Source: a virus (Duplodnaviria > Caudoviricetes). Taken from it: a stretch of DNA of 64,000 bases. The stretch lies in IMG/VR virus record IMGVR_UViG_3300021295_000001; one strand, given 5' to 3'. The translations under genes and the position numbers were made by a program. This document shows positions 3,968 to 61,026 of the stretch, piece after piece (the stretch's first letter is position 1; every line of letters starts with the position of its first letter). The notes below the pieces were generated by a model that did no database searches, was not told where the DNA came from, and was given only the letters and a program-made list of their open reading frames with translations.

Positions 3968-4200
3968 CAAGCGACAAAAGGCTGGGGCCAATCACCAAGG
4001 CGAGGTGCTGGCGCTACATCAAGAGGACGCTCAGGGAGGCCATGGGCTCGGACGAGGGCGCGTTGGCGCTCGTCAGTTCCCTCATACTGGCGATGAACGA
4101 GGCCCGCGACAAACTCGGGGACTCCTTCGAATGCAGGAGCATGACCCTCACGCTGAACGACTTCTTCGACTTCGACGTGTTCAGGGGGGACGCGAAGTGA
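3964..4200 (+). CDS. hypothetical protein
   Basis: ATGA-coupled ORF. Confidence 0.65.
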   Translation: MTSDKRLGPITKARCWRYIKRTLREAMGSDEGALALVSSLILAMNEARDKLGDSFECRSMTLTLNDFFDFDVFRGDAK

Positions 4201-4330
4201 GCGCTCGGAAACCCAAATGCATGCGCTCGGTTCCCGCCCTGCCCCGTCGGCCGTGGGGGAAATCGGGCCTCCCAGCCTGCTAAACTCCGATGGAAAGCGA
4301 TTTGTGCACGGTGCACAATTCCCCATGAGC

Positions 4331-4404
4331 GGGACTTTAGTCCAAAGGCAGAACGCTCGGCCGTTAACCGAATGACGGTGGTTCGAATCCACCAAGTCCC
4401 GCCA
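4331..4404 (+). tRNA. tRNA-Asn(GTT)
   Basis: GGGACTT/AAGTCCC acceptor, CCGTTAA loop (C at position 33), GCCA. Confidence 0.85.
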
Positions 4405-4410
4405 AACGAA

Positions 4411-4450
4411 AAAGGCGCCCGACCGAACAGGCCTGGGCGTCTTTCCTTTT
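4411..4450 (+). terminator. intrinsic terminator
   Basis: AGGCGCCC...GGGCGTCT hairpin followed by a T-rich tract. Confidence 0.65.
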
Positions 4451-4495
4451 CCGTGCGCGATTGGGTCGGTTGACCGACCCATTCCCCTAGGCGTC

Positions 4496-4921
4496 GTGGT
4501 CCATCCTGGTGGGCCAGTGCCACAGGATGAAGTCGTTGCCGACGTGGGCGACGTCTGCTTCTTCGCGAAGGTGGACCCGAACGGGGAACTCTCCGTCGGC
4601 TCCGTGTACGGATACAGGCGGAAGGGTGCCATAATAACGCACAGGCTCATGTTCGTCGAGGGGGACGTCCTCGGCTTCAAGGGTGACAACAACCCAGCGT
4701 ACGACGGCAAGGTCCTCAGGGACGCCGTAGCCTACAGATACCTGGGCAAGAGGCTCTTCGGCATCGGCTCGGTGGCCCTTTACGCGCAATCCCCGCTGGG
4801 CATGTGGTCCACGGCGTGCGCGATTGGCGTCGTCGCGGGTTCCGAGGTGGCCATGGCCAAGGTCTCGTCCATCGAGCGGAAGAGGCTCGAGGAACTGGGG
4901 GTGTCCGAAGATGAGGAATAG
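4496..4921 (+). pseudogene. SipW-like (S26B) signal peptidase I, N-terminally truncated
   Basis: VGD, ITHR, KGDNN..D and C-terminal TM segment present; no N-terminal TM or catalytic SGSM box. Confidence 0.6.
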
Positions 4922-5849
4922 GCTGACGCTTGCGCTGGTCGCCATGTTGGCCCTGCTGTCCGTGTTCGGCGTGGGCCACGCGTGGGTCATGGGCGACGCC
5001 TCCCCATCGCCCAATGAGGCCGAGGTCCGCGTCGTTGACTGGGACTTCGGCTACGACACCGACTTCGCGCTCATCGACAACGTGAGTAACCCGACGTTCC
5101 TGACCGCCACGAGGGAGGTCGCCATAACGCGCGGTAGCAACGAGGCCGTCAGGCTCACGAACACCGCTGGCAAACAAAGCAAGAACCACGCCGTGACGCT
5201 GTCGACCGACAGGGACTACCTCCTGAGCGAGATTAGGTTCATGAAGGTGTCGTTCGACTACTACTACGCCGAGAAGCGCGAGCAGGCGGGCAAAGGCCTC
5301 CCGAAGATACAGTTGCTCTGCGACAACGTGTCGAAGGGCAGTGACCAAGGCGGGGGAGACAACGCGACGGACAAGTCGCCGTTCATCTGCGACGACGTGG
5401 GGGACGGCTGGTGGCACCTCGAGTACTTCATCACGGCCCTGTGCCCGACGATGACGGACCACGGGGACAAACCGCTCCCGCTGTCGCAGAAGATAAACGG
5501 AATCAGGATAACCGACTCCCTCATGTTCGACTACGCGTCCAACGTCGCGTTCTCCGTCATCGACAACCTCAGGTTCTCGGCTGGCCCGACGAGCAGGTTG
5601 GGCCTGTTCAACAGGACGACGAACGTGTCCGTGGGCGGTTACTACTGGTTCAAGGTCGCGTGGGCTGGGGAACTCAGGTCGTGCGTCATCACGTTCAGCG
5701 ACCCGACGCTGGCCGAGCAGGACACCGCCTCGACGAGCAGTCCGTTCTACATAAAGGGGCTCAAGGCGGGCAAGGTCACCGCCACGGCCACCGTGGAGAC
5801 GGAGGACGGCACGACGCTGTCCATATCAAACCAGGTCACCGTGTCCTGA
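4911..5849 (+). CDS. secreted protein with SipW-type signal peptide, beta-rich core and C-terminal Ig-like domain
   Basis: MRNR + hydrophobic segment + GHA-W cleavage pattern; C-terminal IKGLKAGKVTATATV. Confidence 0.7.
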   Translation: MRNRLTLALVAMLALLSVFGVGHAWVMGDASPSPNEAEVRVVDWDFGYDTDFALIDNVSNPTFLTATREVAITRGSNEAVRLTNTAGKQSKNHAVTLSTDRDYLLSEIRFMKVSFDYYYAEKREQAGKGLPKIQLLCDNVSKGSDQGGGDNATDKSPFICDDVGDGWWHLEYFITALCPTMTDHGDKPLPLSQKINGIRITDSLMFDYASNVAFSVIDNLRFSAGPTSRLGLFNRTTNVSVGGYYWFKVAWAGELRSCVITFSDPTLAEQDTASTSSPFYIKGLKAGKVTATATVETEDGTTLSISNQVTVS

Positions 5850-33928: not shown

Positions 33929-36900
33929 ATGGCTAACCTAAAGGAAGTAATCTACTTGACGAACGAGGCGTACGACACGCTCGTTTCGACTGGCACGGTG
34001 ACCGTCAACGGGGTCACGATAAACTACGACGAGAACTGCGTGTACGTGACGCCAGACCAACTGGCCACCACGACGCAGGACGGCTTGATGAGCGCGTCCG
34101 ACAAGGCCGTCGTGGATTCCTTGGGCTCCGCTTCCGCCAAGAACTTCACCACGTCGGTGACGTCTGGCAGTTCCGATTTGGTCACGTCTGGCGCCGTGTG
34201 GACAGCGATAGACAACCTCCCCGAGCCGATGGTATACAAGGGAACGCTCGGCACGGGCGGGACGATAACGTCCCTGCCGACGGCGTCCTCTTCGAACGAG
34301 GGGTTCACCTACAAGGTAATCACCGCTGGGACCTACGCCAGCCAATCCGCGAAGGTCGGCGACGTCTTCATATCTAACGGTATCGCATGGACCCTGATTC
34401 CCTCTGGCGACGACGTGGATGACACTTGGCGCGGAATCAAGGTGAACGGCACCGACCTTTTGGGCACGGGCATCTCCACTGGGGCCGTCAACTTCAAGAA
34501 CGGCTCAAACGTCACGGTGTCTGGCAGTGGCAACGACGTCACCATAGCGTCCTCCAACTATTATCCCACGGCCGTGTCCTGGTCCAACGGCACCACCGCT
34601 GGCCCGACTGGCACGATGACGATGAGCGGTACGTCCAACGTGTCGATACCCGCAATACCAGACGCAACGACATCAAGAAGTGGCATCGTGACCACTGGGG
34701 CGCAATCATTCGGTGGCAACAAGAGATTCGACGGAAGCGTTTCCATGAATTCGTCAGCAACCGTGATAGGACCTCTTTACGTCGGCGAGGGCATACCTAT
34801 ATCAAGAAATGTTGGCGATGCCCCCAAATACACGAAATTCGCGGGCTTCGACAGAAGGTCTGGCGTTCTGTCTGGTTTAACCGTGTTCAGCGGAACTGGC
34901 GACTGGTTCTTCAACGCGGACAAAAAATCCACGTTCACCATACGTAGCACATTCAAAGGAAACGGAGCCGAATCCGACACATACAACGCCAACTTCTACA
35001 CCCTAGGAGTCGACGACGGGGTTACGTTGTACAACCTTTTCGACTGGAATTTGAATTCTGGTTGGCATGTACTGCCTTCAAAGGTGTCCGCATCAACGCC
35101 CGCGATAATCGAAGTCAAGAGTTCGTCGCAAATGACCTACACAGACGTGCTCAGGCTCATAATAACTGGGCACAATGGCGTTGACCCGTCGAACAATTAT
35201 TCTGGCACCCTCACCAATTATAAGATAGAGGTATGCACCGATTACACGAACAACACATGGGTCACGGTCGTCGAAAGGAGCGGGGTCGAAGATAAGATTG
35301 GCTCCTGCCCGATGTACGCGCTTCAAACGTCAACATACACGGCGTGCTTCGGCATCAGGCTCACGATAACTGGGTGTTCTGTCACTGGGTATGGATACGC
35401 CTACATAAAAATAACAAGTTTGCAATTGCGCGACAACCGTCCAGATTTCACGGTCCCAGAGTCCGTCGGCGCCATATCGTCAAGGGGCGGAAACATCTAC
35501 GGGAACCTCATATTCGACGCCAAAGGAAGTCAGCAAACGTTCAGGCCAGCGGTAAACAACACTGGTTATTTGGGAACTGGTTCCTTCAAATGGGCGTCTT
35601 TGGATGCCGTCTCGATAAACGAAAACGGCACCCCACTTTCCAACAAGTACCAAGCGAAACTCTCTTCACAGACCGCGTACAGCGCCAAGGGAACGGCCAC
35701 CAAGGTCCCGCAGATAACGACGAACTCATTGGGCCAGGTGACCAACATTTCGGAAGTCACGATAGACGCGGACACCGTCGATGGGAAGCATTTCACCGAC
35801 GTCGGCATGGAGTTCAGAGGATACCGTCAACTCAAGGTGGGCGCCATAAGCGTCCTCAAGGGAACGGTCACGTACGCCGAATTGATAGCGCTGACTGGCG
35901 TGTCCTACGGCTCGCTTTACTGCGCGTCCGACCAGAACAAATACTACAAACGCTCGTCCACGAATCCGTCGGCGACGGGCGCTTCGTGTTGGATTGATTG
36001 CACCAGTTCATACAATGAGGCGGCCGCGTTGCCAGACCAGCAGGCGAGCGGTGACCCCTACATTTACGTGAAAGTGAACACTCATCAGAAGTACTGGGGC
36101 CAAGACGTTCATTTCTACGTGCGTCCCACATACGACAACACCTCTGGTTCGACAAAGATAACTGGCTTCGCCCGCTCACAGAACAATTTCCTGGCGGAGA
36201 TGGTTGATTACAACGGCAACAAATTGCTCGGCATATACCAGGCCTCGTCCGATACGGACATATACTATCTGAAGTTCGGGAGGTACAACAGCGTATACGT
36301 GGATGGTCCGATGGCCGTCATAAACGTGTATTGCAACGTCGACAACAACATAACGCTCACCTACATACCGTCGAGTTCTTCCGAATACGCCACCGTGTCT
36401 GGGTATTCGTATTTCTCCATACCCTCGGGGGGCATAAAGAGCAACGCGATGACGCATCTGCTCCCGATTGCCAACAACACCTACGACCTTGGCGCCAACG
36501 GTAGGAACTGGCGTGACATATACGCGCAACGACTTCAATTAAACGGCACAAATGGCATAAGTTACGCTGGCACGAAGGCCACCAGTGGGATGATTACCTT
36601 CTACGACAATACGGTCGATGCCAATGGAAACGGTATCGGAATCGGTGGCGGAGGCGTCACCATCGTGGGCTCTGGCGAATCGACCAGCGCCGTTTGGTCT
36701 GGCATCGGGTCCGCCGCTGGCAGTGAATATACTTATGTGGCATCCGACAACGACGTTTACGTAGTCACTAATATGCAGAACGGCTGGGCCAACAGGAAGA
36801 CGTTCGATTTCTCCGCCGACGGCTCGTTCAACGCCACGACTTTGAAGGAGGGTGGCACTTCCCTAGCCGATAAATATCTCGGTAAAACAGCAAAAGCCTC

Positions 36901-37801
36901 AGACGCGGAAAAACTTGATGGTCAGGATTCGACATATTACCTAAATTACAATAACTTAACCAACAAGCCAACAATCCCGACCGTGAATGACGGCACGTTG
37001 ACCATCCAAAAAAATGGTACTCAGGTCGCCACTTTTACTGCTAATCAAAGTGGTAACGCGACCGCTAACATTACGGTTCCAACGAAAGTAAGTGAACTTA
37101 CCAATGATAGTGGTTATACCACCAACACTGGCACAGTCACCTCAATTAAAGTTGGCTCCACTAGTTATGACCCGTCTAGTGGCGTAGTAAGCCTGCCAGC
37201 ATATCCAACGGTAAATAATGGCACTTTAAATATTCAAAAGAATGGAACATTAATTGATTCGTTTCATGCTAATCAAAGCACTGATACTACTATTAATGTT
37301 AGTGTACCTACCAAAGATAGTGACTTAACTAATGATAAATATGTTAACTATACTGCTGCTCAAAACCTTACTACTACCCAACAATCACGCGCACGCAGTA
37401 ATATTAATGCCAGCGCTCCTGTTACTTTGTATATGTATAAATTTGTCCTAAAATATAGTAGTTCTAATGACGGCTTAGAGATACATGCCATAGGATATAG
37501 TACTGCCTCTTATTCATCTTCTACTACAATCACTTATGTATTAGATGCATGGAGAAGTTGCTTTGGATTAAATGTTGACGTTCCTTGTAGCGGTGCTTTA
37601 CGCTCGGTTTATTTTGCATCTATGCTCCAGGTCCTTTCCTGTCGAATTACAAGTACCACTCCCGCCTCAGGTACTTTCTATTTTACCTATTTAAAACCTT
37701 ATAACAGTGCCTCTTCTACAAGTCTTACCTCTACCAGTAGTGGTGGTGAGTCAAACCTTTTTGGATGCTCAGTCACGCCTATTGGCTCAATGACAGTGTA
37801 A
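33929..37801 (+). CDS. long tail fibre protein
   Basis: GACTAAATT upstream; shared modules; DA.KLDG, VSELTNDSGY; AT-rich distal end. Confidence 0.8.
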   Translation: MANLKEVIYLTNEAYDTLVSTGTVTVNGVTINYDENCVYVTPDQLATTTQDGLMSASDKAVVDSLGSASAKNFTTSVTSGSSDLVTSGAVWTAIDNLPEPMVYKGTLGTGGTITSLPTASSSNEGFTYKVITAGTYASQSAKVGDVFISNGIAWTLIPSGDDVDDTWRGIKVNGTDLLGTGISTGAVNFKNGSNVTVSGSGNDVTIASSNYYPTAVSWSNGTTAGPTGTMTMSGTSNVSIPAIPDATTSRSGIVTTGAQSFGGNKRFDGSVSMNSSATVIGPLYVGEGIPISRNVGDAPKYTKFAGFDRRSGVLSGLTVFSGTGDWFFNADKKSTFTIRSTFKGNGAESDTYNANFYTLGVDDGVTLYNLFDWNLNSGWHVLPSKVSASTPAIIEVKSSSQMTYTDVLRLIITGHNGVDPSNNYSGTLTNYKIEVCTDYTNNTWVTVVERSGVEDKIGSCPMYALQTSTYTACFGIRLTITGCSVTGYGYAYIKITSLQLRDNRPDFTVPESVGAISSRGGNIYGNLIFDAKGSQQTFRPAVNNTGYLGTGSFKWASLDAVSINENGTPLSNKYQAKLSSQTAYSAKGTATKVPQITTNSLGQVTNISEVTIDADTVDGKHFTDVGMEFRGYRQLKVGAISVLKGTVTYAELIALTGVSYGSLYCASDQNKYYKRSSTNPSATGASCWIDCTSSYNEAAALPDQQASGDPYIYVKVNTHQKYWGQDVHFYVRPTYDNTSGSTKITGFARSQNNFLAEMVDYNGNKLLGIYQASSDTDIYYLKFGRYNSVYVDGPMAVINVYCNVDNNITLTYIPSSSSEYATVSGYSYFSIPSGGIKSNAMTHLLPIANNTYDLGANGRNWRDIYAQRLQLNGTNGISYAGTKATSGMITFYDNTVDANGNGIGIGGGGVTIVGSGESTSAVWSGIGSAAGSEYTYVASDNDVYVVTNMQNGWANRKTFDFSADGSFNATTLKEGGTSLADKYLGKTAKASDAEKLDGQDSTYYLNYNNLTNKPTIPTVNDGTLTIQKNGTQVATFTANQSGNATANITVPTKVSELTNDSGYTTNTGTVTSIKVGSTSYDPSSGVVSLPAYPTVNNGTLNIQKNGTLIDSFHANQSTDTTINVSVPTKDSDLTNDKYVNYTAAQNLTTTQQSRARSNINASAPVTLYMYKFVLKYSSSNDGLEIHAIGYSTASYSSSTTITYVLDAWRSCFGLNVDVPCSGALRSVYFASMLQVLSCRITSTTPASGTFYFTYLKPYNSASSTSLTSTSSGGESNLFGCSVTPIGSMTV

Positions 37802-47337: not shown

Positions 47338-47967
47338 TCACTTTGCCTCCAATTCGGACAACCGCCTCTCGACGTCCTCGATTTTCCCGAGCAACTCCTC
47401 CTTGCTCTTGGCGAAGTACTCGCGTGCGATTCGCTTGGCCTCGGCCTCGCCATGGAGTTCCCTCTCAAGACAGTGCCTTTTTTGGCCGAACGACGTCCCC
47501 TCGGTGAGGTGCGCGCATTCGTATTGGTATCCTTTGTAGACACCGCAGTCCTCCACGGAGCGGACCTCCAAGGGGTAGATTTCCCCGTTGCAGACGATGT
47601 AGGCGGTATCGCCGACGGAGTATTCGGGCGACCTAGTGGTCAGCGCCCTCTCCTCCATGTCCTCGATGTCGCTTTCGATTGCCTTCAGTTTGTTGGACGC
47701 GTTCTTCCTGCAGACCCTGAGCGCTCTGAGGTTCTCCTGAATCGCCTCGTCCTCGCTGAGCAGGTCTTCGTCGTCGTAACCGAAGTAGATGTCGTCGTCC
47801 TCGGCGTAGTTCGGGTCCATGCTTCTGACTTCGTACTCGTAATTGCTGTCCCCAAATAAGGAAATGCGGGTTACCCTCTTTGGGACCATCACGCTGTACG
47901 TGACCCCGTCTGTGTCGATGACGTATCCGACGTCCCCGACCTTGAACTTCGCTTTTTTGGTTTCCAT
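47338..47967 (-). CDS. hypothetical protein with two tandem (K/E)(F/Y).VGD..Y domains
   Basis: KFKVGDVGYV and EYSVGDTAYI. Confidence 0.7.
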   Translation of the reverse strand: METKKAKFKVGDVGYVIDTDGVTYSVMVPKRVTRISLFGDSNYEYEVRSMDPNYAEDDDIYFGYDDEDLLSEDEAIQENLRALRVCRKNASNKLKAIESDIEDMEERALTTRSPEYSVGDTAYIVCNGEIYPLEVRSVEDCGVYKGYQYECAHLTEGTSFGQKRHCLERELHGEAEAKRIAREYFAKSKEELLGKIEDVERRLSELEAK

Positions 47968-47981
47968 GTGTTTCCTCCCAA

Positions 47982-48362
47982 TCACAAACGATTTACTTCT
48001 AGGATATTATATTGCGTGGTTATGTCTTTGTCAACGTCCTTGAATCCGTTTTCCGTCAAGGACCATGTGTAGCCCTCTCCGTTGAAATAATAGTAATTGG
48101 TAAAATTACTTTCGCCACTGCAATCGAAATACACATTGTGATTTACGAAGCATTTGTGGTAGAGGTCTATGGTCGGTATGCACTTACGAAATCCCTTATT
48201 GGAATAAATGCCTTCCATTCCGCCTTTTATCACGGTCATGATGTCGGTCCCCAGTTCCTCTTCGGCGTCCTCGATTTCCCCTAGTTTGATGAGGGCCATG
48301 GCGCTATCGCTTAACCCAATTATTATTCCGTTCTCATCCTTAATCGTGTATCTCATCGTCAT
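47982..48362 (-). CDS. hypothetical protein (KLG.IED.EE...G.TWSLT family)
   Basis: shares CIPT.D...HNV.FDC with 43828. Confidence 0.7.
   Translation of the reverse strand: MTMRYTIKDENGIIIGLSDSAMALIKLGEIEDAEEELGTDIMTVIKGGMEGIYSNKGFRKCIPTIDLYHKCFVNHNVYFDCSGESNFTNYYYFNGEGYTWSLTENGFKDVDKDITTQYNILEVNRL
48006..48034 (-). promoter_or_regulatory. consensus sigma70 promoter
   Basis: TTGACA-N17-TATAAT on the minus strand. Confidence 0.8.
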
Positions 48363-48368
48363 ACTCCT

Positions 48369-48683
48369 TTAATATCGGTAATCGCCACCCAACGAAGACA
48401 TCATCATGGCCGACAGCAACCCGATTCTCCTCATCGCGTTCTTCGCCGATTGCCGTGACCTGCTGGCATCCTCTTCCAACTGTTCAAAGGTCTTCCCAAC
48501 GTCCAACACGATGACGGTCAGGCCGACGCTTTCCTCCGTGCTGAGGACCTCCATGTCGGACAGTTCGTCGAATAGGTCCTCAGGCATCCTCTTCGCCTTG
48601 TCGTCGAAGAGTTTTTTGATTTCGTTCTTCTCGAGGATTGTCAAATGCCTGTTCCTCGAAATCGCCAATTCGCGCAATTTCAT
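48369..48683 (-). CDS. hypothetical protein
   Basis: coupled ORF. Confidence 0.6.
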   Translation of the reverse strand: MKLRELAISRNRHLTILEKNEIKKLFDDKAKRMPEDLFDELSDMEVLSTEESVGLTVIVLDVGKTFEQLEEDASRSRQSAKNAMRRIGLLSAMMMSSLGGDYRY

Positions 48684-49201
48684 TCCTTTCCCTCCTTGGT
48701 ATTCGACTTATAAGAAGCAAATGCGCCAACATTGAGTTTTGGCACTTTTGCCCAGTGTTTCTTAAACTTTAACTTTGTGGCTTCGCCATTTCGGTTAGCC
48801 TCGTTCGAGCGGTTGAATTCCCTATCGAAGGCCTTCTCTAAAGACGAGAAGAACTTGAACTTATCTTCTTCGACGAACCAACGCACACCCTCGTCTTCCA
48901 ACCAATATGTTTCCGCGCTCTTTTCTTTCGTGATTACGGCGTATCTACCATGTTTCTTCTTGATGCCCTTTATCGCGAAAGTTCCTTCTTTCGCATATAG
49001 AACATCGTGGGTGAGAACCGAAATTATCGTGCTTAAGCCAATGTTGAGTTTGGTCTCGGCGTCGTCTATGAAGTCTTCCAACTCGCCGAATTCCTCTATA
49101 AGTTCTGATTCGGAATCCGAGCCGAACCTGTCCAAGAAATATTTCGATTTCTTGTGCCATCCGCACTCGGTTATTTCGGTGCATCTATAGGATTTCTTCA
49201 T
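48680..49201 (-). CDS. hypothetical protein (G.LED family)
   Basis: FGELED...LEDEGVRWF. Confidence 0.6.
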   Translation of the reverse strand: MKKSYRCTEITECGWHKKSKYFLDRFGSDSESELIEEFGELEDFIDDAETKLNIGLSTIISVLTHDVLYAKEGTFAIKGIKKKHGRYAVITKEKSAETYWLEDEGVRWFVEEDKFKFFSSLEKAFDREFNRSNEANRNGEATKLKFKKHWAKVPKLNVGAFASYKSNTKEGKE

Positions 49202-49212
49202 ATCTTTCCCCC

Positions 49213-49470
49213 TCAATAGAAGTCCTTCACGAAGCACCCGTAGGTGTCGTATCCTGGGTTTCGTCCAAACCAGTCAAGCGCCTTGTCCAGTTTTTCTTGG
49301 AACTCGTCGTCGAACATCGTGCTGTCGTAACTCCTGCCGTTTTCCAGTTCGACCTCGGTGGACCAACCGCCTATCGTCACCTGCCTGACCTCGTATTCCC
49401 TGCCCACTTCCAGTTCTGGGCATTCCGATTCGTCCCAAGGCTCTATGTTCGTTATCGCTTTCGCCTTCAT
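49213..49470 (-). CDS. hypothetical protein
   Basis: LEVGREYEV..V.IG...T motif. Confidence 0.65.
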   Translation of the reverse strand: MKAKAITNIEPWDESECPELEVGREYEVRQVTIGGWSTEVELENGRSYDSTMFDDEFQEKLDKALDWFGRNPGYDTYGCFVKDFY

Positions 49471-49808
49471 CGTTTCCCGCACACGGACTCCTCTATCCTC
49501 TCGGCCTCGGCCAGCAATGCCTTCTTCTTCTCCACTTCGCGCCTTAGGTCAAGCGCGTGTTTCCGAACGAACATGCGGTAGCCAGCGTCGCGCTCATCCT
49601 CGGTGTACAGCGCCTCCTCGTAACACGCCTCGTCGCGCCCGTCCCGCCTTAGGCCGTACATGACGTCCACGACTTCCCCGCCGTCATCCAAGGCTATGCG
49701 ACGGACGTATACCTCGACGACCTTATAAGACAACATGGCGGGGATTCCAGCCTCCGTCATGCCCATATAGGCGGTGTCGCCCAAATCGAACTTCGTCTTG
49801 ATTTCCAT
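49467..49808 (-). CDS. hypothetical protein (IKTKF.LGD family)
   Basis: MEIKTKFDLGDTAY. Confidence 0.7.
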   Translation of the reverse strand: MEIKTKFDLGDTAYMGMTEAGIPAMLSYKVVEVYVRRIALDDGGEVVDVMYGLRRDGRDEACYEEALYTEDERDAGYRMFVRKHALDLRREVEKKKALLAEAERIEESVCGKR

Positions 49809-49809
49809 G

Positions 49810-50247
49810 TCAGTCCTCCCTTATGCAATCGTACATGAAGTCGTTCCCGCCTTTGGTGGCAACCCATTCCTCGTACGTGTATACGCGAACCTCGTCCGAG
49901 AACGGTTGCACCACGAGCCAGTTGTAACTGTACGGGTTCGCGTGGAACATGGCCGTCATGCCGTTCCTGACGTCGAGGGAGAATTTGCCTCGCATGTATA
50001 TGAGGTCGCACCTGACCGTCCCGAGTTTCTTGATTTCCCCGCTACCAGTCGCGACGTAGTAGACGTCGAAACAACGCCATCCGTAGTTCTTCCTGCTCGA
50101 TGGCTTGGTCAGGACGCACGTCGTGACGAATTCGCCCGCTTCAGGGCCAGGCTTTTCCGTCTCGTAATGGAAATGGTTGTGCGCGTAATCGCCGTCATGC
50201 GCCTCGAGCAACTCCCTTTCGTCATCGTCAATCATTCTGCTTATCAT
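49810..50247 (-). CDS. hypothetical protein
   Basis: RBS; ORF. Confidence 0.6.
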   Translation of the reverse strand: MISRMIDDDERELLEAHDGDYAHNHFHYETEKPGPEAGEFVTTCVLTKPSSRKNYGWRCFDVYYVATGSGEIKKLGTVRCDLIYMRGKFSLDVRNGMTAMFHANPYSYNWLVVQPFSDEVRVYTYEEWVATKGGNDFMYDCIRED

Positions 50248-50267
50248 CGTCTTTCCCCTTTCTCCGT

Positions 50268-50645
50268 TCATAGGAGTTTCCACTCCCCCTTATCGTATTC
50301 GGCGACTGGGGTCAGGCCACCGCCTTCCCATATGACGCCGTAAATAGAATAACCCATGCCGTCGTATGTGTCAAGCACCGATTTGGCGTCCCACGAGTCT
50401 GACGGCAGGTATTTGTGGCGCTCCTCGCCGTCCAGCGTGCCGACCACGGTGAACCCGTCGAACAGGGGAGGAAGGTCGTCGGACTTGGCCTTCACGCGGT
50501 CCGACGGAACCCACATCTTGTTGAAGTCGCAAAGGAACCCAGACCCGTTGCGCACGAGGTATTCGGCTTCCCCCTTCCAGTCGTCCCGCGCGTCCAGCGC
50601 CTCGCGTATGCCTTCGTCCGTCCTGACGTATTTCGGATTCGTCAT
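50268..50645 (-). CDS. hypothetical protein (KY.RT..G...YG.IW...GEW.LL family)
   Basis: paralog of 44715. Confidence 0.7.
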   Translation of the reverse strand: MTNPKYVRTDEGIREALDARDDWKGEAEYLVRNGSGFLCDFNKMWVPSDRVKAKSDDLPPLFDGFTVVGTLDGEERHKYLPSDSWDAKSVLDTYDGMGYSIYGVIWEGGGLTPVAEYDKGEWKLL

Positions 50646-50992
50646 AACTCGTTCCTCCCGTAATACGAATCGCCGTCCTCTGGCTCCGACTCGATTGGCT
50701 CGCACGGGTCGTCGTCCCTAAGTTCGAAAAGGGCCCGCTCCATGGCGCGACGCTCCTTCCTCTGCTCCATGCTCGGCCTGACGTCCGCGCCCGACGTGGC
50801 GTGCCTATGCGCCGTCTCCGCGTCCAGCAAACCGCGAACGAAGCATTCCTCGAACACGCCGTCCACCATCTCCTCGGTCACCCAATGGGGCAGGTAACTC
50901 GCGCGTTCCAAGAACCTCGCTATGTTCATGAGGTACTCATCGGAAACCTCCGATTTCCAGTATTCCCTTTCCTTCGTCTTCCAAAAAACCAT
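50642..50992 (-). CDS. hypothetical protein, first gene of the minus-strand operon
   Basis: W.TKE......SDEYL.NI..FL; promoter upstream. Confidence 0.65.
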   Translation of the reverse strand: MVFWKTKEREYWKSEVSDEYLMNIARFLERASYLPHWVTEEMVDGVFEECFVRGLLDAETAHRHATSGADVRPSMEQRKERRAMERALFELRDDDPCEPIESEPEDGDSYYGRNEL

Positions 50993-51018
50993 GGCAATTA
51001 TCACCCTTCTCCCCAAAC

Positions 51019-51047
51019 ATTGTAACGCGGGATGGCGACCAAGTCAA
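51019..51047 (-). promoter_or_regulatory. sigma70 promoter
   Basis: TTGACT-N17-TACAAT. Confidence 0.75.
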
Positions 51048-51133
51048 GACAAGCGGTAGCCCCCGACGTTATTATACGGTCGGCCCCATACCGCTTTTGC
51101 TAAATTCCTAGAACACAAGGAGATATTTTTGAC

Positions 51134-51307
51134 ATGATTACATCCGTTGACCAAAGCACATACGAATTCAGGGGACTCAGCACCGACACGAAGCCGACCG
51201 AGAACGTCGGGAACGGCTCCCTGTTCTTCGAGATGGACACCTCGAAGTGGTACATGTTCGACGCATCCGCCAACACGTGGATGGAAATCACGTGGAGGGG
51301 AATCTAA
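51134..51307 (+). CDS. small virion-associated protein (57 aa, absent from the ORF track)
   Basis: TGCTAAATT at 51098, AAGGAG RBS; GLSTDTKPT..V.NGSLF.EMDT.K.Y.FD motif. Confidence 0.75.
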   Translation: MITSVDQSTYEFRGLSTDTKPTENVGNGSLFFEMDTSKWYMFDASANTWMEITWRGI

Positions 51308-51347
51308 GGCGCGCGCACCGTTCTCGCGATAGAGTGAGGCACGATAG

Positions 51348-52025
51348 ATGAAACCATCGGAATTGTTCTACAAATGCGCCTTCGAGGTCAAATACGAGAC
51401 CGTGGGCAACGACGTGAACTACGCGTTCATCGAGGATGGTAGCACGTTGTACCTGTTCCTGCAAGGAAGTTCGAGTGACGTCGATTGGCGACGGAATTTC
51501 ACGTTCCCAGCCCGCCCGTACAAGGACATGGGCATCCCGTATCTCGTCCACCGCGGGTTCTTGGAGGCGTGGAAGGAACTCGAGGACGTAGTCATCGCCA
51601 AGGTGACGGAACGCGTCCCGTATGGCGAGTGGAAGTACAAATATGACCACGTCGTCGTCATCGGCTATTCCCACGGTTCCAGTTTGGCATTCTTTGCAAC
51701 AGAGTGCATATGGTATCACAGAGAAGATTTGAGGGACGGAGGGTTTGAGACATACGCCTTTGAATCACCTAGAGTGTTTGCTGGGTTTTGGATTCCAAAA
51801 AAATTAAGGGAGCGTTGGAACAACATGACTGTGTTCGTCAACGGAAGTGACATAGTAACCCATTGTCCGCCTCGGATATTTGGATTTTGTCACGCAGGAC
51901 ACATAGTGCATATAAAAGGAGATGTTTCTTTGGTAGAAGGAAGGCTACCGAAATGCATCAAGTACCATTATCCACAAGTAGTTGAGGATGGCCTTAAAAA
52001 GTACGAAAAAGACAAAGACTGCTAA
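51348..52025 (+). CDS. class 3 lipase (alpha/beta hydrolase)
   Basis: QGS....DW, VHRGF, GYSHG nucleophile elbow, FESPRV, DIVTHCPP and C-terminal His. Confidence 0.85.
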   Translation: MKPSELFYKCAFEVKYETVGNDVNYAFIEDGSTLYLFLQGSSSDVDWRRNFTFPARPYKDMGIPYLVHRGFLEAWKELEDVVIAKVTERVPYGEWKYKYDHVVVIGYSHGSSLAFFATECIWYHREDLRDGGFETYAFESPRVFAGFWIPKKLRERWNNMTVFVNGSDIVTHCPPRIFGFCHAGHIVHIKGDVSLVEGRLPKCIKYHYPQVVEDGLKKYEKDKDC

Positions 52026-52120
52026 ATTGTATAGATTGCTCCTCTGATGGTGACGCGTCTGTTGGAGAAATCCGACACACCTTCAGGGGAGGAATCTTCA
52101 GGGACGAATTAAAGCAAAAA

Positions 52121-53071
52121 TTGTTGGGTCTAGGGTGTTTCGTTGACAACGAATACCTAGACCTTTATTGTTCTTTGATAAACGATAACAGAGCCACAAA
52201 AAGGGAAAAGTTCAAAACGCAAAGCCACCACATAATACCGAAATGCTGTTTTTCTTGCCTAAAGTTGCCGATAGACGATTCATCAGAAAACAAAGTCAAT
52301 CTCCTGTATTCAAAACATATCCTTGCTCACTATTATTTGTGTTTGTGTTCAGATAGCACCAATAAACAATTAAAATACAAGTTGGAGAATTCATTTCTTC
52401 ATCTTGTATCAGGCGATGCCAACAACAAAAAACGCATTGAAAATTATGAGGTGGATGAATTTGAACAATTTCAAGAAATATATGAGGAGTGGAAAAGTCT
52501 AAATAGTTCACTTAAATTGGGGAAATCTTCTTGGAACAAAGGTCTTACAAAATCGACAGATGCTCGTGTTGCAAAATACTCTAAACCTCGTAACTTTTCT
52601 AAAGAGCATAATAAAAATCTAAGTAAAGCAATAAAAGAATACTTCAAAACTCATGTAGCGCCAGCAAAAGGGAGAAAGTTATCGGACGAAGCAAAACGCA
52701 AACTATCTGAAGCGCACAAAGGTAAATATTATATGCCAAAGGACCCAGAGGCGCATTCAAAGAAAATGTCAGAAAATTCAAAGAGATACTGGGAAACTCA
52801 TCCCGAAAGAATTAAAGCCCTCATAGAATACAACAAATCTCGTGTTATATCAGAAGAAACACGACGCAAAATTGCCTTGGGCCAAAAGAGACAAGAAGTT
52901 GTAATGATAGACGATGACGGGAATGTGATACATAATTTTATATCCATCAAAGATGCTGCTAGATATTTCAACATAACGAATTGTGCCGTTTCTTGGAGAA
53001 TAAAGAAAAGAAAGGAAATTGAGCCAGGAAGATACTTAGCATTCAAACAGGATACAGATGTCAGAAAATAA
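52121..53071 (+). mobile_element. free-standing HNH homing endonuclease with NUMOD3/NUMOD1-like repeats (start uncertain)
   Basis: HHIIPKC...N.V.L....H..AH; WNKGLT, KGRKLSDEAKRKLSEAHKG, SEETRRKI, F.SIKDAARYF; AT-rich. Confidence 0.85.
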
Positions 53072-53080
53072 AAACAAAAG

Positions 53081-53377
53081 AAGTTTGAAGGCGGTCTCGA
53101 GGGCTACGGATTCGAGGCACCGAGGGTCTTCTTCGGATGGCACGTCAAAAAGGAACTGAGGGAGCGCTGGGCTTCGTTCAGGGTGTTCCGCAACAAGAAG
53201 GACATCGTTACGCACATGCCCCCGATTCTATTCGGGTTCAGGCACGTGGGAGAGGTCGTTAGGATTGGCCAGGGCCTCCCAGACGACGACTACCATTGGC
53301 CGAAGTGCGTGGGCGCCCATTACCCAGACAAGGTATACGAATCGCTCAAGGCATACGAGGCCGAGGGAAACGAATGA
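53081..53377 (+). pseudogene. displaced C-terminal half of the class 3 lipase
   Basis: GGLEGYGFEAPRVF...LRERW...DIVTHMPP..FGF.H.G...PKC...HYP is collinear with the lipase C-terminus. Confidence 0.85.
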
Positions 53378-53549
53378 TTCGACGGGGCCGAAAGACCCCG
53401 TTTTCGTTTCGCTGTATAATATGATTGCGGCTTAAAGCGCACGGTTTCTATTCGTTTTCAAAATTCGAAAAACGCATCGTGCGTGCGCACATACACGCGA
53501 TGTATTCGTCGTTTGCTAAATTCAGAAGAAACGGTTGGAAGGTTTTTCG

Positions 53550-56500
53550 ATGTCCGAAAGCGCAAAGTACTATGATTCTAATGGCAGGCGCCTGACGGAT
53601 GGGCAGGCCAAGTTTTTCTGGGATTCTGCCGTGAGGGACGGCCAAGGAAGGCTGTTGGTGTGCTATCATGGTTCCAACGAATCGTTTTCTGAGTTTGACC
53701 CGTCAAAAGCGTCAGGCGGTTTCTTCGGAAAGGGATTCTATTTCTCGAAAGAAGAGGAATATGCATCTGATTACGGAACATCGGTAGGCGCGTATTACCT
53801 GAACATAGAGAACCCATTCTATTATGATGAGTCGACCATGGAAGACGTCAGGAAAATCCTTGATTTGGAAATCAAAAAGGGAAAAATCGACGGTTACGAC
53901 GAAGAGGAGATGCCACGATTAGAACAAGAATGGTATGACAAAGGGTTGGACCTCATAGACGACGTCTTGGCGGAATTGGCTGGTGGTTACACGGGTGACA
54001 CGTTTTCGGAAGACATCATGCAACTTGGATATGATGGGATACTCGTCGACTACGGAAGGGAGATAATCGTGTTCAGCCCGAACCAGATTAAGCGCGTGGA
54101 CAACACAAACCCGACCGATTCCGATAGATTGGATGAGAAAACAACGCAAAACGTAATCTTTTTCGGCAATCCGACCAAGCGCAATGACATGCGCGCCACC
54201 GAATCATTTGACGAGGCTTACGAGCCGATGAAGACGGGCAAGGCATACAAGGTCTTCCGCGTGAAGAACGGGAAACTATATCCTCCCATGGTGGCCAACG
54301 CTGGCGGAAGGGACACGCCGATTGGGGTGTGGCTCGACGCAGAGGAAGGCGAGTTCGCTGGCCTTTCCAAGACTGGCAGACCCCAAGTCAAGTCGACTGG
54401 CTCTGGCACGCTCTCATACAGGCCTGGGTGGCACCTCGGCGATTTGCCACGCGCCCCTCAGTTCGACAGGACCAACAAGGAGACTGGCGAGAAGGAATTC
54501 CCGAGCGATTTCGTTTGGGCCGAGTGCGACTACGCCATGGACGTCGACTATCAGCCAGAGGCGGACGCCCGTGGGTACGAGAGGACCAAGATGGGCGACG
54601 ACGGCAAGGTCGTGACCTACAAGAGCGACAAATACCAACATTCCCTCGCGGGACTTCCGAAACTCCCAGCCAAGGGTTATTACAGATACAGGACCAACCC
54701 GAACCCCGAAACCGTGCCATGGGTCATAACTGGCTCGATAAGGGTGAACAGGTTGCTTTCCGACGACGAGGTGAACGCCATCCTGAAGGACAACGGAGTG
54801 GCCCCGATACACAGGCAGGGCGGTGACAAGACGCTCGCCGAACTCGGCCTTTCCGAATCCCTGTCCGAGGCATCTGGCTCGGGTCTTGACGAACAGGCGT
54901 CGCGACGCACGCTGACATCGAATGATTTCCTCGGTTGGGTCGAGGCGCTGTCCGACAAAGACGACATATCATATAACTCCCCCGATTCCATCGAATACTC
55001 GGACGTGTTGTTGCTGAGCCCCGAAGGGGACATGATTGACTGCGGGGAATACGACACCCACGAGTCTTTCGTGGACGCCGTGATGGAGACGAATGAGGCC
55101 AAGGAGGCCAAGGCGCGCGTCGTTTGGGACGGGAGAATAACCGATTACCTTTTGGAGAAACTCGGCTACATCACGCTTAACAGTGGCCAAGGATACGGCG
55201 ACGACAGGTTGAAGATAGTCATATGCAGAAAGCCGAGCGCTCAGCAAATCGACATCCTCAAGGAGTGGCTTGGAAACCATTTCGCGGACAACGGTCCCAC
55301 GTTGCATGTTTATACGCCAAACGACCATAAGGAATTCGACCCAACGTATTTCGACAAGGAAGACGTGACGAAAGGCATAATCAAGGCGTTTTCTTCTGGT
55401 AGAGGGGTGTTCACCGAGGCCACTGGCTCGCACCTGAAGGGCGAGTACGACTACGGCGACGTGCATTCGTACCTCGAATCCGAATTCGGGTTTTCGGACG
55501 ACATCCCCGAGGTCATGCCACAACTCATAGACAAAGACGGGCGCTTCTGCTCCATGAGCCCAAAATCCAAGCCGAACGCGCCCATGTTCCATGGGGAGAT
55601 ACTCCAAGCCATGGAGGACGACGGAATCGTGGCCACTGGCGATTCCCTTTTGGACAAGGTGAACCTAACCAACACCGACCTGTTCCAACGGCTCGGGTTC
55701 ATACGTTGCAACCGCGGGAGCGAGGGATACCACTACATGGCGTTGCCAGACGCCCCCACCGCGAACCAGATGAGGGCCCTCAAGAGGTACGTGCTCGATT
55801 CCTATTCCGACAGGCGCGCCCTGATTGAGATAAGCGGTCGTGGCGAATACGTGAACTTCATGGTCAACGACGACACCTATCCGATATGCGGGCACGTGGA
55901 CGACCTCATGAGGATGTTGGTCAGATACGCCAACGGCAGGCCCCTGAGGACGAAAACGGAGGCCAGGTTGTCCGAGGAATGGCTCGACGACGAGCACGGA
56001 ATCTGGATGACCGAGAGCCAATACGAGGTCGCCAACATGATGAGGAACTCCAAACACTCCCTCAGGATACTCTGGGACAGGAACCTCAAACTGTTCTTCG
56101 TGTGCGACGCGGACCTCTACATACACAGGGACATGATTGAGCAGGCCGTGGAGGACGGGCTGTACAACGGCGTCATAAGCCGTTGGGGTATAGACTCGTA
56201 CGTCGACGACTACGGCAGGAACGTGATATACTACATCTTCGCGCCGAAGGGCCTCGAGAAGGAGACCTACGGGGCGGACGTGAACGAGGACGGCTACGAG
56301 GGTAAATACATATACCCATTCGGGACCGTGACCACGCGTAGCGACGACAGGTACAAGTCCTCACCGCTCGCCAAGGCGCTCGGGAAGTACGAGGCCCATT
56401 ACGTGCAGGACGGGTGGGTCGACGATTACACGCCGAAGGTCGTACAGGTAGAGTCGATGCTCACCGAGGTGTATCCGAACGAGGGCGAATCGAAGAAGGA

Positions 56501-58503: not shown

Positions 58504-61026
58504 ATGGAAGGATACGTATACGAGTTGAAGGGCGAACAGGGCAAGTCCAGGTTCGACGAACTCCAAGAACAGATAGACTCCCTCGACACGAGGGTCGACG
58601 CGTTGGAGGACGTCGTCGTAACTTTCGTCACGCTCGACACCGCGCAGACCATAACTGGCGACAAGGAGATAACTGGGAACGTACACATAGACGGCGCCCA
58701 AGGAAAAGCCATAACCCTCGGGCAATCCGCCGATAACCCCCGCGTGACCATAGACCAGTGGAGCGGTGTCGTCGGCTTCACCGACACGGAAGGCGGATTC
58801 AACGAATTCAATCCCTGCGACTCCGACTTCGGGGCGATACCATCGTTCGACAGGTTGGGGGTTTACGACCTGAACGCCAACGGTTTGTACTCTGGCGACT
58901 TAGAGGTCGCCGACAGCGCGACGATAGAGAACCTCCGCGTCAAAACAGTCAAGGCTGGCAACACCACGGTCAAGGGACAGAACGTATACAACTTCGAGGA
59001 ACCCTGCACGTTCAACTTCGGCATAACAAGCAGTGGTGAGACTGAGTATTATGGCGTCTTTAATACATATGACCCAGATTATGATGGCCCTCGGTTTAAT
59101 TTCCTTGCAATTGGCGGGTTAACAGTTGAAAGCAGGTTAACAGTTGAAAGCAATTTATATATTCCATCTACGATTCGCGCATATACGCCTAATGTAGGCA
59201 CATATACAATAACATTCCCCACGAAGAATGGCACGGTCGCTTTAACATCGGATTTGTATGATTATCTGCCTTTGACAGGTGGCACAATAGTATCTAGAAT
59301 TGCTGAGAATACTGATGAGAATGTCATTTCAAATCGTGAAATAACAATCAGAAGCAACGACCGCAATCACTATTCCACATTGGACAAAAATGGTGTGACT
59401 GTGTCTACACTTGGTTCATATGGTTCGACAAAAGTACAATTGGATGGCGTATTGACAACTTATGGTAGATTTGGAGAATCTGGTCATAAATACGCATCTA
59501 ATGGCATACACAAAATACTCAACAACGTTGAATTTACTTATACATTCCCATCGGAAAGCGGAATGCTCGCCTTAGGCGAACTGAAGACGACGTGGTCGGA
59601 ATTGAAAGCGTTGCGTGATGCAAGCAAGTTGGTGCCTGGAAGACAATACAGGATTACCGACTATGTCTGCACTACCGCTCAGGCAAACACCTCTTCCGCT
59701 GGGCATCAATTCGACATCATCGTTGTCGCTGACAGCGTAAACAAATTGAATGAGGTCGCACGCGCATGCCTTCACGAAGGCGATACGTATTTCGCCAACA
59801 GCAAACTGGAGGCATGGCAACTTTGGTATTGCTTGGACAACGACGACACTCGATTTGAATGGGCCGACACAAGTTACATTGAAATCGTCGGCACGATAGT
59901 GGCGAACGATGTTAGTTGGGACAGATATGAGGCTGGCGACTTCCCATCAGGCCGACATCCGTATGCGTGGAAATCCTCGGATGGAACAAGAGTCTACACC
60001 GATTCGACGACACCTTCCGTTTCAGACGAAGCATACACGTCAAGTTCCCCGAGTCCCAGTTACGCGATTACGGAAATCGTCATGGGAAACAAATACACAG
60101 GCAAAGGTGTAATTTACCATATGGTTGACGAGTTCGACAATGACGTTCCTTATGACTTTAAGAACATATTGTTTACGAAATCGGGTAAATATACAAATGC
60201 ATACACTTTTAGTTATACAGAAGACAGTGTGATTAAAGATGCTTCATTATCATTAAGTAATGGCTGTTATGGTAACAGTATGAAAGAATATCTTTTAGGC
60301 GGTAAACAACAACTTAATTTTAATGTATTTTATTCATCATCTGTTAGTGTCAGTTCTCTTATGTGTTATTGCAATACCTTTGGTTATGATTGCTACAACA
60401 ACACATTTAGAGAAGGTTGCTCTTGTAACACCTTCATCTCTAATTGCCGTAATAACATCTTCGGCGAGAGTTGCTCCTATAACACTTTTAATGGGAGTTG
60501 CTTTAACAACACCTTTGACAACGATTGCTTTAATAATATTTTCGATTCTTATTGCTCTAGCAATCTCTTTGGTCAGAATTGCACAAACAATACTTTCGGT
60601 GCTTATTGCACCAGCAATACATTCGGTGATGATTGCTTCGACAATACTTTCGGCTCTAGTTGCTCTAGTAACGTCTTTAGTAGTAATTGCCCTTACAACA
60701 CATTCGGTTGTAATTGCGACCATAATATCTTAGGTGATACTTGCTCCAACAACACCTTTGGCAATAATTGCACCTATAACACATTTGGAGAATCATCTTC
60801 GCCAATTAATTACTGTCGAGGCATTCTTTTAGACAATCTTTGTAGTTATTTAGAGATTATTTCTACCGACACTTCGGCGACATCAAGCAACTGGCTACAG
60901 AACATCCATATCCATCTCGGTGTGGCTGGTTCATCATCAGACCGCAAAACCATCACAATACCCGACCGCAATCTTCAATACACAACCGACGTCTACCCGA
61001 CAGGCTCAACGGAGATGTTCATATAA
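58504..61026 (+). CDS. tail fibre/spike with Cys-rich NTFG beta-helix repeats
   Basis: TLDTAQTITGDK, FP.K.GT.ALTSD, W.EL..LRD...LVPG..YRITDY and tandem 11-aa C..NTFG repeats. Confidence 0.8.
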   Translation: MEGYVYELKGEQGKSRFDELQEQIDSLDTRVDALEDVVVTFVTLDTAQTITGDKEITGNVHIDGAQGKAITLGQSADNPRVTIDQWSGVVGFTDTEGGFNEFNPCDSDFGAIPSFDRLGVYDLNANGLYSGDLEVADSATIENLRVKTVKAGNTTVKGQNVYNFEEPCTFNFGITSSGETEYYGVFNTYDPDYDGPRFNFLAIGGLTVESRLTVESNLYIPSTIRAYTPNVGTYTITFPTKNGTVALTSDLYDYLPLTGGTIVSRIAENTDENVISNREITIRSNDRNHYSTLDKNGVTVSTLGSYGSTKVQLDGVLTTYGRFGESGHKYASNGIHKILNNVEFTYTFPSESGMLALGELKTTWSELKALRDASKLVPGRQYRITDYVCTTAQANTSSAGHQFDIIVVADSVNKLNEVARACLHEGDTYFANSKLEAWQLWYCLDNDDTRFEWADTSYIEIVGTIVANDVSWDRYEAGDFPSGRHPYAWKSSDGTRVYTDSTTPSVSDEAYTSSSPSPSYAITEIVMGNKYTGKGVIYHMVDEFDNDVPYDFKNILFTKSGKYTNAYTFSYTEDSVIKDASLSLSNGCYGNSMKEYLLGGKQQLNFNVFYSSSVSVSSLMCYCNTFGYDCYNNTFREGCSCNTFISNCRNNIFGESCSYNTFNGSCFNNTFDNDCFNNIFDSYCSSNLFGQNCTNNTFGAYCTSNTFGDDCFDNTFGSSCSSNVFSSNCPYNTFGCNCDHNILGDTCSNNTFGNNCTYNTFGESSSPINYCRGILLDNLCSYLEIISTDTSATSSNWLQNIHIHLGVAGSSSDRKTITIPDRNLQYTTDVYPTGSTEMFI

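Follow-up and report, generated by a model that had tools for sequence, protein, structure and literature searches.

We examined a 64,000-nucleotide stretch of a virus genome (IMG/VR record IMGVR_UViG_3300021295_000001; Duplodnaviria, Caudoviricetes), hereafter the window, in which a lipase gene at positions 51348 to 52025 is followed by a gene for an HNH homing endonuclease and then by a second, start-less copy of the lipase 3′ part, all on the plus strand. We propose that this arrangement probably arose when a cassette carrying the endonuclease gene entered the lipase gene, bringing a replacement for its 3′ half and leaving the native 3′ half behind as a remnant. A preliminary description of the region had put forward the same origin, which is now backed by linkage of the nuclease to lipase at four of the four loci fetched, by the placement of the two lipase 3′ halves in separate clades, and by a topology test that rejects their common origin. 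Most known cases of homing with a replacement gene end come from fungal mitochondria. Phage genomes are shaped by homing endonucleases; how these enter a gene without an intron, or pass from one phage to another when the target gene is all that the two have in common, has been learned chiefly from laboratory constructs and those mitochondria. The locus adds a natural phage example with two readable junctions, a set of relatives for comparison across the family, and a specific prediction of the target.

Anatomy of the lipase-endonuclease locus

The open reading frame (ORF) at 51348-52025 is complete, encodes 225 amino acids and matches the Pfam family Lipase_3 (PF01764, E = 1.7e−12) over a region that covers both the native and the imported parts described below. 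Its AlphaFold model (predicted local distance difference test score, 83.8) has the fold of class-3 lipases; the best match among solved structures is the Rhizomucor miehei lipase (E = 2e−9), and feruloyl esterase A also matches. The product is therefore a predicted enzyme, a class 3 lipase on the alpha/beta-hydrolase fold. In the lipase family alignment GYSHG (the GxSxG nucleophile elbow, encoded here by GGC TAT TCC CAC GGT), D168 and H207 are invariant, and the protein of the window keeps all family-invariant residues.

The composition of the gene changes abruptly within its coding sequence. Windowed GC content falls from ~0.57 to ~0.42 near position 51680, stays at 0.32 to 0.39 over the endonuclease ORF, and is 0.51 to 0.58 from ~53050 onward. 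GC content at third codon positions (GC3) falls from ~0.8 in lipase codons 1-105 to ~0.4 in codons 111-225, and the downstream copy has a value of ~0.77. At the resolution of single codons, the switch lies between TCC (codon 111) and AGT (codon 112), at 51680/51681, where the preliminary description had also seen the lipase become AT-rich, just past the catalytic GYSHG codons. We accordingly distinguish a native 5′ part (codons 1-111, through GYSHG and one codon more; 51348-51680), recognized by GC3 and the codon-level reading, from an imported AT-rich 3′ part (codons 112-225 and the stop codon; 51681-52025), recognized by GC3, by its clade among lipase C-terminal halves and by a short sequence patch. 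The patch, AGT TTG GCA TTC TTT GCA ACA GAG, opens the imported part and is linked to the nuclease in other phages, as detailed below. The imported part continues the native part in frame, and the chimera is intact as a coding sequence, with a foreign C-terminal part joined to a native 5′ part.

The endonuclease gene (52121-53071, 316 aa) begins 95 nucleotides past the lipase stop codon (TAA, 52023-52025), in another frame and with a leader of its own; it is not fused in phase with the host gene, as some mobile elements of fungal mitochondria are. The HNH and NUMOD assignment made earlier for this AT-rich ORF holds. NUMOD3 scores 23.0 bits against a Pfam cutoff of 20.4, NUMOD1 falls just short of its own (20.3 versus 22.8 bits), the I-TevI DNA-binding domain gives a weak match, and the NUMOD-type modules are placed C-terminal to the nuclease domain. 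The protein also matches PHROG 655, annotated "homing endonuclease" (E = 3.9e−20), and T4-type mobC genes match it by tblastn at 25 to 26% identity over 88 to 90% of its length. In an alignment with 10 homologues, HNH residues H36, H37, N57/N60 and H66/H70 are invariant or nearly so. With an HNH motif, NUMOD modules, a position embedded in neither an intron nor an intein, and a sporadic occurrence at one locus, the gene has the predicted features of a free-standing, T4 Mob-type homing endonuclease. Its homology to relatives begins near 52100, and the codon that is ATG in relatives is AGG in the window; within 52088-52126 the first start codon is TTG at 52121, ~28 nucleotides away from the Shine-Dalgarno sequence. 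A second HNH nuclease, a paralogue of 268 aa (P0202, 37% identical), is encoded elsewhere on the 150-kb contig of the same phage; tblastn found no copy of it inside the window besides a cross-match to 52121-53071.

Behind the endonuclease gene, the translation of 53075-53374 aligns with lipase residues 130-224 at 47% identity over 95 residues (E = 3e−29). This GC-rich, start-less lipase C terminus had been placed at 53081-53377 in the preliminary description; the copy is present, but its homology is firm only from ~53087 (EGGLEGY), and the A-rich bases before that point are part of the imported segment. Because the three residues ahead of EGGLEGY differ from the DLR conserved in the lipase family, native codons ~112 to 128 are missing. 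On homology, GC3 and the phylogeny given below, we take 53087-53377 to be the lipase gene's own 3′ part, now displaced (codons ~129-225 and the stop codon). The 3′ junction, where an A-rich imported tail meets native DNA with an abrupt change in GC content, lies within 53072-53086. Its exact joint is ambiguous; the sequence there reads AAAACAAAAGAAGTTTGAA followed by GGCGGTCTCGAG, with the boundary at about 53086/53087. The remnant has no start codon and lies in the frame of the endonuclease ORF, a coincidence with a chance of 1 in 3, from which it is parted by a single TAA (53069-53071).

The remnant retains every column conserved at ≥93% in the lipase family, and no decay was detected when we looked for it in the family alignment; the methionine at its THCPP position is also found in 9 of 148 family members. 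Such an undecayed state fits a recent event and gives no date. Directly 3′ of the remnant's stop codon is a terminator-like hairpin (53381-53402; a seven-pair stem with five GC pairs, then a T-rich run), that of the original lipase gene. Native context has returned by 53514-53522, where a resident copy of the motif TGCTAAATT precedes the next gene, which starts at 53550 and encodes an ART-PolyVal protein, as identified by its Pfam match. The longest exact match common to the two lipase halves is ~9 bases, so a long direct repeat through which the cassette might be precisely excised is lacking.

Nuclease linkage and ancestry of the lipase halves

A search over 5.8 billion proteins returned homologues of the endonuclease at 47 to 54% identity. 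At all four loci fetched for the closest of them (L009, L014/L015, L016 and L017; 48 to 54% identity), the nuclease gene lies directly 3′ of a Lipase_3 gene, and the nuclease is absent from 21 IMG/VR lipase loci and from L006, L007 and L040. L009, L014 and L016 are contigs of AT-rich phages (27 to 32% GC). L017 comes from a second GC-rich phage (~56% GC beyond the lipase and nuclease genes), in which the 3′ part of the lipase gene and the nuclease gene are AT-shifted. Across the comparison set, the same nuclease appears to have repeatedly replaced the lipase 3′ half in phages of 27 to 56% GC.

Pieces of lipase are also found behind nucleases elsewhere. In L018 the cassette is at a different site and has a stub of 20 to 22 lipase tail codons after the nuclease (E = 4e−9), which shows that a cassette can relocate and carry a lipase stub along. 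The P0143 nuclease ends in an in-frame fused lipase tail of 17 residues (E = 5e−10), and the P0146 and P0144 nucleases end in fused tails of 9 residues, short matches that are only suggestive. Each carried tail resembles a different lipase lineage. The L018 cassette (L018:1160-2257) sits behind an unrelated 135-aa gene and consists of AGCTAAATT, a variant hairpin with altered stem bases, and the nuclease.

To place the two lipase halves of the window, we built a maximum likelihood tree from 50 rows of lipase C-terminal halves. The AT-rich half falls in a clade of ten (support 99/95) that holds all five nuclease-linked lipases, as sister to the lipase of L017 (97/86). The remnant belongs to a separate clade of thirteen (100/100), none of them known to be nuclease-linked, and is sister to the nuclease-free L020 (98/90). 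The two C-terminal halves as one clade are rejected (approximately unbiased [AU] test, ΔlnL = 80 in log-likelihood units, P = 6.5e−5). Composition is not the driver of this grouping, since lipases that group with the GC-rich remnant include those of the AT-rich phages L024 and L028 (GC 0.30 to 0.32). The two halves are of separate ancestry, and a common local origin is rejected.

The N-terminal halves tell a different history. In their tree the C-half clades are scattered, with five changes needed for each, and well-supported N-half sisters carry C-terminal halves of different clades (P0002/P0006, L016/P0032 and L014-P0010-P0005/P0097). Replacement of the 3′ half is therefore recurrent in the lipase family, which would explain why the two halves have different histories.

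Proposed route of entry and alternative origins

In a group of uncultured T4-like phages, a T4 Mob-type nuclease gene resides directly behind a class-3 lipase gene, and in the lineages sampled with the nuclease, which are mostly AT-rich, the cassette consists of TGCTAAATT, a hairpin that hides the ribosome-binding site (RBS), and the nuclease gene. We propose that a co-infecting carrier phage supplied the nuclease, whose cut or nick would have fallen between codons 111 and ~128 of the resident lipase gene, just 3′ of the codons around the catalytic serine. Recombination of the left break end with the donor lipase inside the conserved GYSHG codons (51680/51681) would have followed, and from the donor the lipase 3′ half, the leader and the nuclease gene would have been copied by gene conversion into the GC-rich phage. 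Because lipase genes occupy different genomic neighborhoods in different phages, there was probably no matching DNA beyond the cassette. The right end, probably having no homologous partner, would for that reason have been joined illegitimately near 53072-53086 after limited resection, a joint that would have kept resident codons ~129 onward and the terminator and lost ~17 native codons. Cleavage, cut position, immunity and repair route are thus what we infer from the observed structure.

The sequence next to the catalytic serine offers a candidate for the target. In each of the five nuclease-linked alleles GYSHG is directly followed by S-L-(A/T)-F-F, with (A/T)-T next in four; the DNA of this patch (patch A) is near AGT TTG GCA TTT TTT GCA ACA GAR in four of the five. 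Ten distinct nuclease-free alleles have A-L-A-(A/G)-(F/L)-C-H or a close variant at the same place (patch B). The nuclease is present at 5/6 patch-A loci versus 0/10 patch-B loci (Fisher's exact test, P ~ 0.001, the loci not being independent). The patch falls within the ~17 codons missing from the window's remnant, and, if one event made both junctions, the cut was made between codon 111 and codon ~129, an interval that contains the patch. We suggest that patch A presumably makes nuclease-linked alleles, the chimera included, resistant to the nuclease; the cleavage immunity put forward in the preliminary description would be read from this association of patch and nuclease. The probable cut site is thereby bracketed to ~17 codons beside the catalytic serine, and patches A and B provide a candidate pair of resistant and sensitive sequences.

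The closest known parallels are the hybrid genes formed by mobile endonuclease ORFs (mORFs) in fungal mitochondria (Allomyces macrogynus atp6; Glomus sp. atp6, atp9, cox2 and nad3) (PMC3630166). There too the endonuclease travels with a foreign C-terminal gene part that is in frame with the native 5′ part, no intron is involved, and a second, unused copy of the C-terminal part, the native one, persists downstream and clusters with relatives that lack the element. The architecture of the window matches these genes, in line with the earlier proposal that the intronless homing strategy of fungal mitochondria operates in a phage. The ancestry pattern holds here at the level of clades only, the best element-free match to the remnant being 66 to 72% identical and the native 5′ part not grouping, with support, with the remnant's clade. 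Unlike the mitochondrial cases, this one concerns a bacteriophage, and its nuclease is of the HNH/NUMOD type rather than LAGLIDADG or GIY-YIG. Several mORFs share the reading frame of the gene they join, whereas the nuclease of the window is an ORF apart, with its own promoter-like motif and translational hairpin. Furthermore, mORFs have element-free sister genomes (Allomyces arbusculus and G. irregulare), of which none was found for the phage of the window. In the literature searched for phages that keep a remnant of the target gene in this way, only the fungal mitochondrial cases came up.

Two processes known from phage T4 resemble parts of the proposed route. In intronless homing by SegF, SegG and MobE, as in the window, a free-standing nuclease gene adjoins its target gene, here a putative one, and the nuclease studied here resembles mobC. 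Repair of the break co-converts the flanks, and sequence differences in the allele of the carrier give immunity (PMC2988022, PMC2790892). In T4, however, both flanks are homologous and conversion is clean, with no remnant, whereas here the far flank is unshared and the native end is kept. Homing of the one-sided kind, in which the double-strand break is repaired illegitimately at a non-homologous or microhomologous site, is experimentally documented for the T4 td intron (reviewed in PMC2988022). It shares with our proposal homology on a single side, resection, and a clean 5′ crossover paired with a ragged 3′ joint, here with ~17 codons lost; it differs in that it used engineered laboratory substrates, while the locus described here is a natural product, identical in every sampled assembly.

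Several observations weigh against the entry of a cassette as we propose it. Locus L040 has patch A and a lipase half of the nuclease type without the nuclease, so the link between allele and nuclease is not absolute. L014, L016 and L017 contain no remnant, which indicates that a remnant is not an obligatory product of the process. With AGG in place of the relatives' ATG, the nuclease of the window has no canonical start codon and may already be inactive; its expression may be weak, or decay may have set in, with AGG as an early step after fixation. The N-half tree gives the 5′ part of the window no supported place with the relatives of the remnant. Finally, DNA and protein searches found neither a nuclease-free near-relative nor a close donor, the best protein identities being 66% for the N-terminal half, 68% for the AT-rich half and 72% for the remnant, and DNA identities 60 to 70%. 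For this reason the assignment of ancestry rests on composition and clade membership, and not on a before-and-after pair.

The searches behind this last point covered several sources. Neither megablast of 50900-53700 nor tblastn of the lipase found a match in the phage collection, and the 5.8 billion proteins included no nuclease-free near-copy of the remnant (best identity, 72%). The ART-PolyVal neighbor, tried as a source of empty sites, led to four IMG/VR loci, none of which has a lipase nearby. The contig of P0004 stops at the lipase and does not cover the sequence behind it. The check proposed in the preliminary description, that nuclease-free relatives should match the remnant, could accordingly be made at the level of clades: the remnant's clade has no known nuclease-linked member, but no near-relative of this phage was found.

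Among other possible origins, we consider two-sided homing unlikely, though worth weighing. The donor cassette would already have carried a lipase 3′ fragment as its right homology arm, making the remnant a working part of the element and dispensing with an illegitimate joint. Lipase tails that follow or are fused to the nuclease in L018, P0143, P0146 and P0144, each resembling a different lipase lineage, speak for this possibility, and a carried right arm would help the element, given the different neighborhoods of lipase genes. However, the known carried tails span 9 to 22 codons, while the remnant of the window begins at codon ~129. Furthermore, GC3 of the remnant is uniformly high from its first codon, so that no donor-derived part is visible, and L014, L016 and L017 are without any tail.

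A local tandem duplication of the lipase gene, in which the nuclease later destroyed the 5′ part of the second copy and the two copies diverged in place, is very improbable. It would account for the two like-oriented C-terminal halves, homologous and separated by 1.35 kb, but not for the outcome of the AU test or for GC3 values of 0.4 and 0.77 in the two copies. In addition, the 95 nucleotides between the lipase stop codon and the nuclease ORF are a conserved leader rather than lipase 5′ sequence, and tandem full-length lipases, which the preliminary description had named as the observation that would overturn its proposal, occur at none of the fetched loci with a recognizable lipase match.

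We give even less credence to a group I intron or other spliced element that carries the nuclease, with the GC-rich parts as the true exons. GC-rich parts do flank an AT-rich, endonuclease-coding insert, as in phage group I introns. Yet no Rfam intron family matches 50500-54500 at E ≤ 1, the sole match being one small RNA at chance level, and with it the second objection anticipated in the preliminary description falls away. The lipase reading frame already runs to completion within the insert, with no need of splicing, and joining 51680 to 53087 would remove ~17 family-conserved codons of the helix after the nucleophile. Nuclease-linked relatives also lack a downstream exon.

An assembly chimera, in which an AT-rich phage contig was misjoined into a GC-rich phage, would produce the sharp change of composition at both borders but is scarcely credible, because the exact lipase protein recurs on 15 metagenome contigs, the longest of them 150 kb. 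Moreover, five independent samples and assemblers (ENA, JGI twice and Logan twice) yielded contigs that agree with the window at 100% identity in every overlap within 47348-56025, and three of the five run across both junctions.

The cassette leader and further observations

The leader of the endonuclease gene has two elements. The first is the promoter-like motif TGCTAAATT (52020-52028), which overlaps the lipase stop codon. It occurs eight times in the window (positions 416, 15041, 22136, 51098, 52020, 53514, 57936 and 63741), always on the plus strand, against 0.24 copies expected, and mostly 30 to 60 nucleotides before ORF starts. It is also found in the related contigs L006, L007, L009, L010, L012 and L040, and it is probably a promoter motif of this phage group. 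The preliminary description had regarded it as the cassette's own; its overlap with the lipase stop stands, but the motif is not private to the cassette, since it occurs eight times in the window as a promoter-like motif of the resident phage, shared with the donor lineage. The motif heads the cassettes of L009, L014, L016, L041 and L043-L046, while L018 has AGCTAAATT instead.

The second element is a hairpin, predicted by folding (52033-52097), that pairs CUCCUC with GGGGAGG, the Shine-Dalgarno sequence of the endonuclease gene. The fold of 52020-52135 has a minimum free energy of −39.6 kcal/mol (z = −3.6), and that of the homologous leader of L009 has −35.6 (z = −7.9). As the promoter-like motif lies 5′ of the entire hairpin, transcripts that start there would probably still fold. 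The core of the leader is nearly identical in 10 of 11 cassettes, and one compensatory pair was seen among these 11 leaders.

The ten near-identical leaders include six on metagenome contigs without a lipase match, which a search with a 22-mer of the leader had retrieved and none of which adjoins a lipase; a 26-mer pattern had no match in IMG/VR. These copies are at L041:470-570, L042:185-264 (minus strand), L043:870-972, L044:1378-1484, L045:975-1054 (minus strand) and L046:1028-1107 (minus strand), and TGCTAAATT precedes five of them. Five of the six contigs carry HNH nucleases, 31 to 53% identical over the aligned parts, and L042 carries a GIY-YIG nuclease, so that the leader sequence is far more conserved than the nucleases it precedes. 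The upstream ORFs vary between these contigs; judged by their translated ORFs alone, the neighbors include look-alikes of GTP cyclohydrolase, DNA methylase and DNA ligase.

A late promoter paired with an RBS-sequestering hairpin is documented for T4-type endonucleases (PMC2988022), with I-TevI, I-TevII, I-TevIII, segB and Aeh1 mobE as examples. The leader described here is similar in having a promoter-like motif immediately 5′ of a hairpin that pairs with the Shine-Dalgarno sequence. It differs in being almost invariant across nucleases that are 30 to 50% identical or belong to another family (GIY-YIG in L042), and its motif is predicted from sequence. Found ahead of nucleases of different families, the leader may serve as a control element that can be redeployed with toxic genes. 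A bolder possibility, toward which we are doubtful, is that the nuclease family is a self-contained gene drive that brings both homology arms, a resistant 3′ half and a lipase tail, and can for that reason invade any lipase-carrying phage regardless of the genes around the lipase; the leader may likewise be a portable expression module shared by HNH and GIY-YIG nucleases, recognized perhaps by a phage or host factor through its sequence as well as its pairing.

Other features of the relatives and of the window were observed along the way. TGA is read as tryptophan in several AT-rich relatives (L014:3207-3911 and 4001-4960; L016:3219-3920; L022:2995-3702), as seen from in-frame TGA at conserved W positions of the lipase, from three such codons in the L014 nuclease, and from the gene caller flag "with_TGA=W". 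TGA/TGG codon usage, tried as a marker of chimerism in L016 and L014, was uninformative, the nuclease-free L022 being alike. In a related 155-kb phage, a 1036-aa protein with LAGLIDADG/Hom_end domains is encoded just upstream of a T4-type portal gene (L006:1-1540), and this gene may contain an intein. Two long tail-fiber-like ORFs of the window (33929-37801 and 58504-61026) have AT-rich C-terminal ends (GC 0.38 to 0.45; 36900-37800 and 59300-61000) in a genome of 55 to 60% GC, with further AT-rich stretches at 15-16 kb, 27-29 kb and 42-46 kb. The AT-rich tail-fiber ends look like additional modules exchanged with AT-rich relatives.

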